Assembly (NCBI GenBank): GCA_964016885.1
Contig: OZ024749.1
Coordinates: forward strand, 47,926,001-47,990,000
Direction: 5' to 3'
DNA: 64,000 bases
Source of the DNA: Eledone cirrhosa
Taxonomy: Eukaryota
This document shows, piece by piece, positions 19,255-57,436 of this stretch. The notes below the pieces were generated by a model, which worked only from the letters and a program-made list of their open reading frames with translations, was not told the origin of the DNA and searched no databases. The translations under genes were made by a program, and so were the position numbers. Every line of letters starts with the position of its first letter. The stretch's first letter is position 1.

Positions 19255-19471
19255 GCAAGTAACAAATGCGACATACTTTTCAGGGCTTCTGTTAAAAGCC
19301 TGTATTGTTTCTACAGATATGAATTTATCATATAATATATCTATATATCAATATCTTTATAAATCTCTCCCTCTGTCTCTAGATTTTAAACGAAACCTGG
19401 ACAAGGAAGGAAACACACATTTAATGCTCATACACCCACACACATATATGTGTATATATATATATATATAT

Positions 19472-20680
19472 ATGAATCAAAATGGCGAGCTGTGTTGTTT
19501 CAAATAAGTATAATGAAAAATTAGAAATTAGAAGTTAGGATTATCCATCATCAGTTGTCTACTAGGCGTCATAGGCATTTCTTCGCGTTAAAGACAAGAT
19601 ACCTCAGCCTAGGGCGAAACAATAACTAAAGTAAGTTATTGGGATAAAAAGAAGTGGGTGGAGAAAGAGAAGGACATGTAAACAGACAGGATGGGTGATT
19701 CAACGTAAAGAGAGCAAAAAAAGGAAAACATCAAGTCAATAATTCATTTCGAACATAAGAACGGGCGAACTTTGATGAGGAGAAACTGATTACGTCTTGA
19801 CCATGCGAGTGTGAGCGAGAAGCAAGACCGCGTACAGTGTTGGATGAGGGAGGAAGTGAGAGAGAGGATGAGTAGCAGAGAGTGAGTGAGTGAAATTGCG
19901 ACGAGGAGGCTAGCCGAAATGAATTATTGACTTGATTTTTTTCATTCTTTCCACTCTTTACGTTGCCTTACCCATCGTGTCGGTTTACATGACCTTCTCT
20001 TTCTCCACCCACTTCCTGTTTATCCCAATAACTTACTTTAGTTATTGTTTCACCCTGGGTTGAGGTATCTTGTCTTTAACGGGAAGAAATGCCTATGACG
20101 CCTAGTAAACAACTATGATGGATAATCCTAACTTCTAATTTGTAATGTATCATTATACTTAATTGCAAAAACACAGCTCTCGCTATTTTGATTCATATAT
20201 GCTTCCCCTTCTGCTGTGACCTTTTCTCTTCCCTTGGTGCTAACCTCGCTCTCCCCCTTCTCTCTCGCCTTCTCCCTCTTACTTTTACTCACACCCTCTG
20301 CTAGTCACCCTCTCTCGGCTAGCCTCTTCCTCGCACTTTCACTCATTCACTGTCTGCTACTCACCGCGGTCTTTCTTCTCGCTCACACTTGCACGGTCAA
20401 GACGTAGTCATTTTCTCCTTGTCAAAGTTCGCCCGTTCTAATGTTCGAAATCAATTATTGACTTGATTTTTTTCATTTTTTCCTCTCTTTACGTTGCCTC
20501 GCCCATCCTGTCTGTTTATATGTCCTTCTCTTTCTCCACCCACTTCTTTTTATCCCAATAACTTACTTTAGTTATTGTTTCGCCCTAGGCTGAGGTAGCT
20601 TGTCTTTAACGCGAAGAAATGACGCCTAGTAGACAACTGATGATGGATAATACTAACTTCTAAATTCTAATTTTTCATTA
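19472..20680 (+). mobile_element. Non-coding PLE/retrozyme-like insertion, family D: inverted ~450 bp copy plus ~1.4 head-to-tail copies of a ~530 bp unit, flanked by (TA)n
   Basis: 19472-19919 is the reverse complement of unit sequence in 19920-20680; 19920-20158 repeats at 20451-20680; contains a decayed expanded-stem-II HHR (CTGATGA-T-GGATAA...TTATTT-GAAA). Confidence 0.85.
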
Positions 20681-20696
20681 TATATATATATGTATG

Positions 20697-20728
<32 letters not shown>

Positions 20729-21391
20729 AGAGAGAGAGAGAGTTCCATTACGTAGAATAATTTACACACGTAATCATGCCCGTTGAATTATCAAGAGTTA
20801 TGTTCTGTTTCGTTTGTTTTTTTTTAAATACGTGAAAATATTCTGTAGTACTGATGACTAGAATGCATATCTTGTAATTTCCTTTCCTTACGATGCTCTG
20901 ATCAATCTATTTATACATATATACATACTAACTTACTTTCTTAGAAGCTTCAGAAAATTTGCAATTGTTTACTACATTTCTCTATATATTTCCATTACGA
21001 TGTTCATGTTTTCCTAAGCGATTGTCTTAATAGCATACATTTTATATCAGTCAGCTTAAAAAAATATATATTTTTTTTGTGTCTTGCTGATTGCAGAACA
21101 AAGTATTAGCAATTATTATCGGCGTATTCATCAAAGATATCACTATAATTTCTCCAATATTACTCCACCACGCTATTATCAGCAATATAAGTAACGGACT
21201 TCTAAAAGTTTTGCTTTATTCTTTTTCTCTGTATTGATTGTCGACATCTACTTTTCCTGTTTCTACCCCTTGATTTTTCTTTTTTTCCTTTCTATCAGCA
21301 TATATTTCCAAACACGTTCTTGCCATTTCTTCTTTTGTTTTGAATGGTCTAGGAAATCTCAAAGAAATATTACGCCAATATATTGTAATGG

Positions 21392-25791: not shown

Positions 25792-25840
25792 TAGGACCCC
25801 GACGGCTGAGCTCCAGCCGTCGGGGTCCTACTCGTTTCTA
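25792..25840 (+). mobile_element. Family B copy 2: collapsed perfect hairpin
   Basis: TAGGACCCCGACGGCTG-agctc-CAGCCGTCGGGGTCCTA between TA runs; centre deleted between the two GAGCTC palindromes. Confidence 0.85.
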
Positions 25841-25865
25841 TATAAATATATATATATTTTTTTTA

Positions 25866-40743: not shown

Positions 40744-40968
40744 GTAATAATAATAAAATTGAAGACTAAAATCCAAAGAGGGCTCGATAAGGAAAATATA
40801 TATCAAATATATAAGAACCGTAGAGCAAATATTTATTAAAATAACAGATTAAAGTTTAAGCAAAGAATCGCTGCTTTCACCCTTAACGGGATCTTCTGAA
40901 ACTCTTCAGAAGATCCCGTTACGGGTGAAAGCAGCGATTCTTTGCTTAAACTTTAATCTGTTATTTTA

Positions 40969-40976
<8 letters not shown>
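40744..40976 (-). mobile_element. Family C element: tail plus fold-back with 72 bp arms containing a hammerhead-like motif on both strands
   Basis: 40829-40900 is the reverse complement of 40905-40976 (1 mismatch, loop ACTC); arm reads CAGAAGA-T-CCCG-tta-CGGG-T-GAAA-GCAG-cgattct-TTGC-TT^AAAC; TA runs on both sides. Confidence 0.88.
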
Positions 40977-43103: not shown

Positions 43104-43170
<67 letters not shown>

Positions 43171-43194
43171 CATTTATATAGATATATACATATA

Positions 43195-43352
43195 TAGGAA
43201 AAGAGTCAGGACCCCGGTTTTGAGCTCCGTCCGGAGCTCAGCCGTTGAGGTCTTGATTCTATTCCTATTACCGAATCTACTACATTAAGTATTGAGTACT
43301 ATGGTTTGCTAGGGTCCACCTGGTATTTTACTTACCCCCTTTGTTCTTTAAA
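43195..43352 (+). mobile_element. Family B copy 3: shortened hairpin plus tail
   Basis: TAGGAA...GACCCCGG..TGAGCTCC-gtcc-GGAGCTCA-GCCGTTGAGGTC...TTCCTA, tail CTACTACATTAAGTATTGAGTACT...GGTCCACCTGG. Confidence 0.85.
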
Positions 43353-43794
43353 TATATATAGAACATATATAAATACACATATATATTGATATCTTTATTG
43401 TTTCTATATATGCATATATGTGTGAGCGTGTGCAGGAGTGCGTCAGTTTGTATACGCATGGGTGTGTATGTGTGTGTTTATATGTATGTATACATATATG
43501 TGTGTTCTTGCACCTTTATATAAGCATATGTGTATATATGCGTCCAATGAAATGTGGTAATTTTGGTGCGAGCACACATGTGTATGTTTTCTCTAGTTTC
43601 TCACAGAAAGTGTATTACATATATAGACGAGACCATGACAGCATATCTCTGCATCCCCGCCCCACCGCACACTGCACATGAGGATCATGAAATCATGAAA
43701 CCGGTTGATTTAAATAAAGTATGTATTCTTATTGCTTCCTATGGGGTTCTAACGTTCAGGATAAACATATTTCTTATATACAGACATGAACACA

Positions 43795-43910: not shown

Positions 43911-46302
<2,392 letters not shown>

Positions 46303-53176: not shown

Positions 53177-54374
53177 AGAAAGATAAACAATGAAAGAAAA
53201 AGAGAGATCGACAGGTAAGTGATAGTAAGAGGTTTCAATATTATGTTAGAAAGCGATAGTAGGACTAGTAGGACACAGCAATGTAAATATATATTTATTC
53301 AACAAAAAGGTATAGGAAACAAAGTGACAACTATGCAGAAAAAGTAGAGTAAATATCTGAATATTCATAACGGTAAACATTGTATATGTATGCGTCGAAT
53401 CTTTGCGTGGGTTCTTTCTTTGTGTGTATAGATATATAGAGACATATATATATATATGTATGTGGGAGAGGGGGTATGCTGCCGTGTGTGTGTGTGGGGG
53501 GGGGGGGGGGGTGAATATACAAGTATGCATACATATATTTCCATTAACACAACAAATATTCTCTCACCTCATTTATTAAATTATTCAAGGTAAAACGCGA
53601 TAGAATAATGGAAAACAAAGTTTTATACTATATATATCACTTGCAAGTTATCATTATTCGTGATGATATAGATATGTGTCGTGAATGTAACTATAAGATT
53701 AATATTTATACATAAAATGAATATGACAGAAGCAATTAAATCAATAGCACCTCTCCGACTTGCCAAGTGAATTTTCAGTTGCAATTTTCTTCCCCTTAGT
53801 TTAATTGTCCGGGAATTCTAACTAGCCGTGCATAAATCACTAATGGTATACACTAAAACTTCACCAAATTTAAATAATTCGATTTTCCTTTAATAATAAG
53901 CAATCTTTTATCCAACTACATGTGATATATTAGGTTTGACAAGTGTTAAGGGCATTAGTAAATCGAGTTATTACAATTAGGACGTTTTATGAGCATTTAA
54001 TAAATAGGTGTCCGATGTCCGGCCCATTATACACGAGTGTGTATGTATGCAATTTGAAGTATACACACAGACACATACACAGACACACATACATGTCAAT
54101 GGATGTACGTGCGTGTGTTATTTTGGTTTGTATATAAGAGTATTTGTGAGCCTGAAGCAGTAATATGATTTTATATATTTACTATATATATTATTTTTAG
54201 ATGTAAAATGCCTTTATTGATTGAGTGAATTAATTTACATATAAATTGCATCCGTATCTATCAATTTATACCCACACCACAAACACGAACACGCTCACAT
54301 ACATCCACACCAATACAGACACACACACCACATATATATGTATATATATATATATACATCACACCATTTTTCAT

Positions 54375-54944
54375 TCCTATAATTTTCCCCTTAGCTGTGA
54401 TCTGTATTTCTCTTCCCTTACTGCTATCCTCTTTCTCTCTGCACCTTCTCTCTCATTGTACCTCTTATTTTCATTTACCCCCTCTGCTAGTCACCCTCTC
54501 GCGGCTAGCCTCTTCCTCACACTTTCACTCACTCACTCTCTGCTACTCACCCCTTCTCACTTCCTCCCGTCTGACCCGTGTGCAATTCTTTTCTCGCTCA
54601 CATTTCACTTGGCTTAGATGTGTCTGTAGCCTTCTCCTCAATAATTATCTAGATCTTATGTTCACATGTATCACTGACTTGTTTGTCATTTTTCCACTCT
54701 TTACGTTGCCTCACCATTCTTATTTGTTTACATGTCTCTTTCTCATCTTTCTCCACCCAATTCCTTTTATCCCAATAACTTATTTTAGTTATTGATCGCG
54801 CTGGCCTGCGTTATCTGATCTTTAATGCGAAGTAATACATATGATGTCCAGAAGATCACTGATGATGGATAGTTCTGGCTTCTAGCTCTATTTTTTTAAT
54901 TCATGTGTATCACAATCGCAACAACGCAGCACGTCATGTTTTTC

Positions 54945-54946
<2 letters not shown>
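54375..54946 (+). mobile_element. Diverged single-unit copy of family D with an expanded-stem-II HHR remnant
   Basis: CCTCTGCTAGTCACCCTCTCGCGGCTAGCCTCTTCCTC and TTTATCCCAATAACTTA match 20295-20570; CTGATGA-TGGATAG...GCAA-CAACGCAGCACG-TC near the 3' end, then (TA)n. Confidence 0.8.
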
Positions 54947-55026
<80 letters not shown>

Positions 55027-55218
55027 ATAGGAACAAGTAAGACCCCGACGGCTGAGCTCAAGCCGTTTCGATGTCTAATTCTGGACTGAATTAGCCGTCG
55101 AAAGGGCTTGAGCTCAGCCGTCGGGGTCTTACTTGTTCCTATTACCGACTCTACTACACTAAGTATTGAGTACTTTGGTGCGTTATGGTCCACCTGGTTC
55201 CTTACCACTTTTCCTTCG

Positions 55219-55219
<1 letters not shown>
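55027..55219 (+). mobile_element. Family B copy 4 (best preserved): ~115 nt hairpin plus ~77 nt tail
   Basis: TAGGAACAAGTAAGACCCCGACGGCTGAGCTCAAGCC pairs perfectly with GGCTTGAGCTCAGCCGTCGGGGTCTTACTTGTTCCTA; (TA)n on both sides. Confidence 0.92.
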
Positions 55220-55250
<31 letters not shown>

Positions 55251-55690: not shown

Positions 55691-57009
<1,319 letters not shown>

Positions 57010-57071: not shown

Positions 57072-57106
<35 letters not shown>

Positions 57107-57115
57107 TTATATATA

Positions 57116-57429
<314 letters not shown>

Positions 57430-57436
57430 GTATATA

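Follow-up and report, generated by a model that had tools for sequence, protein, structure and literature searches.

The 64,000-nucleotide stretch of Eledone cirrhosa DNA analysed here, hereafter the window, holds a repeat array at 19472..20682 which is almost certainly a non-autonomous Penelope-like element (PLE), carrying what is probably a hammerhead of new topology related to type SGC. In its fuller form, held with fair confidence, this reading describes a retrozyme-type element with a unit of ~575 nt, whose 3' region bears every part of the hammerhead core, arranged as cut site - GAAA - CUGANGA, is predicted to adopt a self-cleaving fold and likely derives from Naiad. The non-circular permutation of the hammerhead is the main feature of the array and was overlooked in an earlier note on this DNA. 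As far as the accessible parts of the published reports go, this scrambled (SGC) order has so far been reported only outside animals, and a literature search with limited coverage of subscription journals found no SGC hammerhead in an animal element.

Architecture of the array and its family

The array is composed of an inverted and a forward arm between two microsatellites, and a further insertion of the same family lies elsewhere in the window:

19441..19473, no strand: left target microsatellite, (CA)/(TA)n (read from the sequence)
19472..19917, minus strand: inverted arm of 0.79 unit, consensus u399 to u277, ending at the distal TA site and bearing the tail (self-BLAST, alignment)
19472..19508, minus strand: tail of ~37 nt, only at the outer end of the inverted arm (sequence, alignment, family pattern)
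19915..19917, no strand: CGA microhomology joining the 5' ends of both arms (sequence, alignment, joint in a short-read contig)
19915..20682, plus strand: forward arm, in which 1.43 units follow one another head to tail with a period of 531, ending at the proximal TA site, without the tail (self-BLAST, alignment)
20364..20365, plus strand: site of a private 35-nt deletion, which shortens the period to 531 (alignment)
20678..20744, no strand: right microsatellite, (TA)n then (AG)n (read from the sequence)
54360..54950, plus strand: independent insertion belonging to this family, with greater divergence and a little longer than one unit, ending at the distal TA site, with GAAA changed to GUAA (self-BLAST, alignment)

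Much of this arrangement had been recognised in the earlier note and is borne out: (TA)n is present on both sides, self-BLAST of the window and alignment recover the inverted copy of ~450 bp, the CGA at the junction is common to both arms, the ~1.4 head-to-tail units correspond to the 1.43 units of the forward arm, and both outer ends are TA words internal to the unit. The array was also correctly described as lacking an ORF, as none of at least 100 aa is found inside it, and the longest Met-ORF of the family consensus is 51 aa. The unit size of ~530 nt must be revised to ~565-580 nt, since the period of 531 in the forward arm results from the private deletion, which is not present in the inverted arm; both this arm and the insertion at ~54360-54950 keep the 35-nt segment, and the unit here is ~566 nt. 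That insertion had been placed at 54375-54946 and described as a solitary unit retaining the segment absent at ~20364; the segment is indeed retained, but the ends overlap and the insertion measures 1.09 units, a figure taken from BLAST in which the alignment runs into the TA flank. Short-read contigs agree with parts of the locus with zero differences, and one spans the inversion joint 19917/20316 in one of three runs, which are possibly from the assembly's own sample; the kind of contig in the runs is unrecorded, but they behave as genomic DNA would and reveal no ends.

The family consensus unit is 576 nt, and direct repeats occur with a period of 543-650, with one exception of 440. A first look at the 3.0-Gb genome gave 2,347 candidates for the unit. 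A family 20-mer has 901 exact matches genome-wide, compared to 0 for its reversed control, and as it is exact in 24 of 54 BLAST-picked copies, the genome is estimated to hold roughly 2,000 ribozyme copies. The median divergence between units of one insertion is 6.7%, from which it follows that the family is not very young.

Insertion architecture was examined in 85 loci taken in order along contig C1, comprising 96 pieces bearing the 20-mer; the overlapping loci L086, L110 and L111 were dropped before this count, and L102 was also dropped from the 82-copy core count and the 53-copy BLAST-picked set described below. The 3' ends fall at u222-248 in 56 pieces, at u269-277 in 32 and elsewhere in 8, the two sites (88/96) being TA words ~37 nt apart, while the 5' ends are variable; a TA-rich flank follows 61 of the 96. 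Pieces longer than one unit number 28, reaching up to 1.81 units with 6 exceeding 1.3, and the other 68 are one unit or less; the longest insertion in another BLAST set of this family is 2.16 units. The permuted, greater-than-unit insertions that a genome-wide survey had been proposed to reveal are therefore found as regards their length, but are not freely permuted, as their 3' ends lie at two fixed sites. No coding partner was seen in the loci read for the family, which together with the over-unit pieces runs against the condition named as refuting the earlier proposal, namely that the unit is always just the pLTR of a coding PLE with no multimers.

Head-to-head arrangements are present at 29 of the 85 loci. 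In 9 of these pairs an arm ends outside both TA sites, and in all 20 classifiable pairs the tail is on exactly one arm, with one of each TA site (p ~1e-7), a rule to which the insertion in the window conforms. Marks of a non-autonomous PLE present in the family are a constant 3' end with a 5' end that varies, partial tandems, an inverted copy of the 5' part and a one-sided tail of 30-40 bp, and it is almost certainly a PLE-type element. As the 3' end is fixed, the pyrimidine-rich strand (70% C+U) is taken to be the RNA strand. The family architecture likewise supports the earlier proposal of a non-coding, ribozyme-bearing element of PLE type inserted at (TA)n from multimeric or re-copied RNA. 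The mark of the retrozyme type, non-coding tandem units with a hammerhead motif in each, is present as well. In the parts of the reports available, metazoan non-LTR retrozymes (PMC7229834; 10.64898/2026.07.22.740005) are similarly non-coding, below 50% GC and dispersed, with tandem units each holding a hammerhead and a proposed dependence on PLEs; they are, however, defined with type I hammerheads, whereas the Eledone unit has the SGC order, is 575 nt long, is mostly partial and rarely exceeds 2 units.

Several individual loci deserve mention. At L176 (G000:C1:179573557-179575789) both arms of the insertion start at u144, 5 nt from the predicted cut. L185 and L186, which lie 331 kb apart on opposite strands of C1, hold the same 5' junction and flank, and probably represent a segmental inverted duplication of one insertion that has been counted twice. 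Within the window, 55017-55232, 57072-57436, 115-336, 43106-43360 and 25792-25857 belong to another non-coding family inserted at (TA)n, which forms palindromes; by eye it has GAAA, a stem III hairpin and GUC, corresponding to the G and S blocks of a hammerhead, and CUGANGA is not seen in the part present. Other two-armed insertions are probably represented by the long palindromes or inverted-plus-tandem structures at 1884-2424, 40829-40976 and 55719-56915. A repeat with 305-bp spacing at L066 and L067 (contig C286) has no relation to the ribozyme motif.

Proposed insertion route and form of the RNA template

In the proposed route, a multi-unit RNA would be transcribed and part of it cut at the ribozyme, while a PLE enzyme acting in trans would nick (TA)n on both strands. 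On each strand reverse transcription would then be primed at one of the two TA words, which lie downstream of the cut by ~100 and ~140 nt, and both cDNAs would truncate at variable points before joining 5' to 5' by microhomology, giving the inverted-plus-tandem array. Fold-back copying of one arm from the other was considered and rejected, as in 6 of 20 pairs, and likewise in the window, the arm without the tail exceeds its partner in length.

The positions of the 5' ends bear on the state of the template. Truncations at u127-150, a stretch containing the predicted cut at u138/139, make up 12 of 96 in the first lap against 6.6 expected (p 0.03), where the bin adjoins the search pattern, and 6 of 14 in the second lap against 1.0 expected (p 0.0002; 0.009 against the local rate). 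This excess suggests that some templates may have begun at the cut. The stops are spread across the stretch instead of concentrating on u139, and the stretch is TA-rich; TA microhomology or RT pausing could be an alternative source of them.

The earlier note had the reverse transcriptase running around a ligated circular monomer, a route that is possible though on balance doubtful. It would account for insertions as long as 2.16 units, and metazoan retrozymes form circles according to the part of that report available (PMC7229834). Across 30 multi-unit loci, divergence is the same in upstream as in downstream units (247 and 240 non-consensus sites) and shows no recurrent polarity; such equality is just as compatible with template jumps or a uniform tandem source as with a circle, and the absence of polarity led to the rejection of a master with two diverged units. 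Against a circle, 68 of the 96 pieces are one unit or less and only 6 surpass 1.3, the excess of stops near the cut fits linear cut RNAs, and coding PLEs also make partial tandems, as stated in the portion of Craig 2021 (PMC8557442) at hand. The insertion in the window points in the same direction, as its upstream unit holds ~14 private changes by hand count, compared to 5 and 6 in the other two copies, a difference of borderline significance. This unit is 8.6-9.3% diverged from the other two copies, which are themselves 4.8% apart, hinting that its template may have been non-uniform. Copying from multi-unit RNA, partly cut at the ribozyme, is kept as the working route.

The hammerhead motif and its predicted fold

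The motif occurs in the window as one intact and several damaged copies:

19533..19634, minus strand: the only intact SGC-order hammerhead motif of the window (sequence, descriptor, alignment, pair counts)
19619-19614, minus strand: upstream arm of the intact motif (alignment)
between 19598 and 19597, minus strand: predicted cut of the intact motif, after AUC (descriptor)
19597-19592 with 19560-19555, minus strand: stem I of the intact motif (alignment, pair counts)
19581-19578, minus strand: GAAA of the intact motif (sequence)
19554-19548, minus strand: CUGAUGA of the intact motif (sequence)
20033..20133, plus strand: second ribozyme copy, damaged by deletion of G5 of CUGAUGA and by substitutions in the upstream arm, pre-GAAA strand and stem I
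20563..20660, plus strand: third ribozyme copy, damaged by U16.1 to G at 20598 and by a 6-nt deletion removing the post-GAAA strand of stem III
19772..19796, plus strand: antisense hammerhead look-alike with GUC, a chance occurrence without conservation (1 of 35 copies)

A canonical hammerhead at the GUC, as the HHR of the earlier note would imply, is not supported: an Rfam search of the window element at gathering and E-value thresholds returned no hammerhead or other ribozyme, and the only GUC-type look-alike is the antisense one, which has no stem I by eye. The note gave no location, and this look-alike is probably the GUC that was meant; it was rejected, being private to the window copy. 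Nor is a GUC junction of the unit supported: the conserved motif is on the opposite strand with a predicted cut after AUC or AUA. A hairpin-ribozyme reading of the sense motif was considered and dropped because the would-be G+1 varies among subfamilies.

On the sense strand all parts of the hammerhead core are conserved, in the non-circular order cut site, GAAA, CUGANGA that defines type SGC. A descriptor covering all six orders finds in the consensus SGC alone and on the sense strand alone, neither the circular order of types I-III nor the type I hammerhead of non-LTR retrozymes being present, and on the window element it finds one instance, in the inverted arm; two weak SCG matches on the plus strand of that element have stems of 4 bp and 2 bp. 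The SGC descriptor gave 107 matches in 1.45 Mb of examined DNA and 0 in the reversed sequence, and in a set of 0.95 Mb it gave 50 compared to 0 reversed and 0, 0, 0 block-shuffled. Among 82 family copies, U16.1 is kept in 79, H17 as A or C in 79, GAAA in 71 and CUGA(U/A)GA in 68, and the core is intact in 81 of 92 pattern-picked copies, 32 of 53 BLAST-picked copies and 1 of the 4 in the window. From this pattern, there is good reason to expect that the motif worked as a hammerhead in the source copies, and the element likely cut its own RNA.

Stems I and III flank the core and show covariation, as in a hammerhead. In the 53 copies, chosen by BLAST and not by structure, pairs are swapped between subfamilies both in stem I (140-180, UA 24 and GC 20) and in the outer helix (128-170, CG 30 and GC 10). 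Across 25 rows from four families, both sides change in 6 of 6 pairs of stem I and 6 of 6 of the outer helix, matched by 0 of 500 shuffles; as stems I and III guided the choice of rows, independence there is limited to the outer helix and the upstream arm, and family C is misaligned at both.

The strand before GAAA forms 4.3-5.6 bp with sequence upstream of the cut site and 0.7-1.6 bp with that directly after CUGANGA, where the upstream values are to be read against control windows which reach ~3 bp by chance and are wider than the 2-position test after the core. Stem II is thus rather likely to be formed from the upstream arm, its 5' strand being detached from CUGANGA and placed upstream of the cut site. 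It is irregular in family A, where 10.1-11.1 frequently has A facing A and hence no pair, and where the upstream helix extends over just 4-6 bp; covariation of this helix inside families A and B is small, at 1 of 4 pairs.

The outer helix comes after the upstream arm and before the 3' strand of stem I, which is the connectivity of Eckert's stem I-II helix. With the upstream arm, this would make the whole a type SGC hammerhead whose two ends are joined and which is opened again after A9. A bulge of 3 nt with tandem GA steps separates stem III from the outer helix, and the steps are kept in 47 and 51 of the 53 copies. In the kink-turn consensus, two helices are separated by a 3-nt bulge and then by tandem G.A and A.G pairs. 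Set against this consensus, a kink-turn-like sequence pattern is present in families A and B and in octopus Naiads, and is not clear in family C. The outer helix would close stems I and II, with the kink-turn folding it back from stem III.

Published SGC ribozymes have been shown to cleave and, in the part of Eckert 2023 (PMC10085705) available, were found only in metatranscriptomes. HRIMA-1 and its variants share with the Eledone motif the full core in the order cut site - GAAA - CUGANGA, the short link between stems I and II and an extra helix at the other ends of both; that helix, which in type SGC joins stems I and II, corresponds to the Eledone outer helix (6 of 6 pairs, and also in unselected copies), the role of which is putative. 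The two differ in that published SGC ribozymes were assumed to have CUGANGA joined to its stem II strand, stem II being formed from the strand directly after it, whereas the Eledone motif pairs upstream, and a kink-turn-like loop joins its stem III to the outer helix. Because CUGANGA is not joined to the stem II strand, the activity of Eckert's ribozymes cannot be transferred to the Eledone motif.

A fold within one molecule is considered somewhat the more probable over a dimer. RNAfold, which cannot show pseudoknots, omits stem I from the monomer fold of the window copy, and circular folding of the whole unit is not clearly unusual (z -1.84 sense, 0.02 antisense, 40 shuffles). It is unlikely that the ribozyme is active only as a domain-swapped dimer, in which the long hairpin of one unit would give the cut site and GAAA, the tails of its neighbour the stem II arm and CUGANGA, and only tandem transcripts would be cut. 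Such a dimer is suggested by the linkers of a mere 2-5 nt between outer helix and stem III, by the distance of the base of the outer helix from the loop, by cofolded pairs, which come out 7-10 kcal/mol lower than two monomers but do not take up the active fold, and by the axolotl retrozyme hammerheads, which cut much better as dimers in the part of the report seen (PMC7229834). In families A and B and in octopus Naiads, however, the internal loop has a pattern that suits a kink-turn and would permit fold-back within one molecule, and the same two helices have an unexplained 0-nt link in some SGC ribozymes (Eckert 2023, PMC10085705, available in part). Still more improbable is that the motif is a hammerhead-derived, non-catalytic RNA handle, such as a recognition or folding signal for a PLE protein. 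The irregular stem II of family A would agree with this, as would the insertion of a Poseidon PLE in vitro without need for ribozyme cleavage (PMC11167929, consulted in part), but in families with different stems every catalytic position is kept, as are the H rule at 17 and the freedom of position 7. The monomeric, self-cleaving hammerhead is the preferred reading.

The SGC descriptor also revealed sister non-coding families B and C and a single copy of D, with the same ribozyme layout and other stems (L005:357-1108, L078:309-410, L081:1692-1793, L114-L133, L084:1260-1361). Family B forms a 650-nt tandem. In family C, with 1,247 candidates, the cut site is GUC, the upstream arm contributes a G10.1-C11.1 pair and the stems are entirely different; it is the cleanest assay candidate among the sister families.

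Relation to Naiad elements and significance

In the part of Craig 2021 (PMC8557442) available, Naiad and other PLE insertions show partial tandems, inverted 5' copies and a 30-40 bp tail at one end, with a (TA)n bias in Naiads, which are reported without canonical hammerheads. The Eledone repeat shares with Naiads the (TA)n targets, 5' truncation, partial tandems, inverted 5' copy and one-sided 30-40 bp tail, but Naiads have an ORF and the repeat does not, and no intact Naiad was found in the Eledone genome.

By eye, the same ribozyme layout is present in the octopus Naiad 3' ends seen in the accessible part of the published material, one of which is labelled HHR_half_core. Octopus Naiads, including Naiad_Obim, have a 10-nt motif in common at an equal distance upstream of the arm, again by eye. 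Judged in this way and with no tool, mostly on the last 330-400 nt, 8 of 42 published Naiad 3' ends hold the layout: Obim, Ovul, Amil, Aacu, Anas, 3_Chem, 2_Movir and Bfor, the last with a stem I of just 2 bp. These represent five independent lineages, and the names are presumed to stand for corals, a hydrozoan, a box jellyfish and a ctenophore in addition to octopuses. The remaining 34, in the part examined by eye, have other motifs or none. The ribozyme-like motifs of other Naiads seem to be type I hammerheads with a long stem II in nematodes, a type II-like order in spiders and an ostracod, a twister-like motif in 1_Movir and an HDV-like motif in bivalves, 1_Chem and 2_Chem. The hammerhead motif was likely inherited from Naiad elements.

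In the Eledone genome, Naiad coding relics are heavily broken, with 90 matches, a longest open frame of 321 aa and stops inside the match; no ribozyme was found within ~1.5 kb downstream of Naiad RT relics in the 15 loci read, and a protein database search with a relic as query, a weak search, returned nothing. An octopus Naiad 14-mer has 7 matches compared to 11 for the control, and 2 of the 7 plus one further locus are old relics of the motif. In the old relics L062, L065 and L073 (central motif), the GAAA-block sequence is that of the published octopus Naiad and the outer helices are compensatory; one old relic of the octopus-Naiad type belongs to no family.

The best candidate seen for the mobilising enzyme, and a candidate only, is a Neptune-like family with a 784-aa protein of RT plus C-terminal GIY-YIG, a CX4CX2C linker and 13,605 candidates. 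The linker would be of Neptune/Nematis type by Craig's description, as far as the available part goes (PMC8557442). Copies are 0.3-4.4% from the majority line, which overlaps the age of the repeat, and the 3' end of the family has no similarity to the repeat unit. Intact 784-aa frames are numerous in this abundant family, L076 (period 3869) is one of its tandem arrays, and a GIY-YIG end, broken by a microsatellite, is present in the window at 45112-45570 on the minus strand.

That the unit is just the pLTR or 3' end of a coding PLE, a DNA-level satellite or an assembly artefact is extremely improbable and largely refuted: many copies consist of a short 3' fragment, the form expected of 5'-truncated coding PLEs, but the head-to-tail junctions are spaced ~575 nt apart and so leave no space for an ORF, and the dispersed copies, fixed 3' ends, tail rule and short-read contigs, which agree with the locus and include one spanning the inversion joint, argue against a satellite or artefact.

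The widest form of the preferred reading, to which an even chance is given, is that the motif represents a topology beyond Eckert's six: a non-circular permutation with stem II split from CUGANGA, in which a kink-turn would fold the closing helix over the core. It would occur widely among Naiad PLEs, from ctenophores to octopuses, with thousands of their non-coding derivatives also carrying it, and would cut the RNA which is then copied by PLE reverse transcriptases from the two sides of a (TA)n break.

Should the motif cleave, ribozymes with a non-circular permutation would be common in animal genomes and not confined to environmental RNA, and would have been missed both by Rfam and by the descriptors of retrozyme and PLE surveys. 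The claim of hammerhead-less Naiads would then need revision, the HHR_half_core label would be partly explained, and the kink-turn would be a structural answer to Eckert's puzzle of a direct link from stem III to the stem I-II helix. The one-sided tail rule, for its part, constrains how PLE enzymes prime on both strands.
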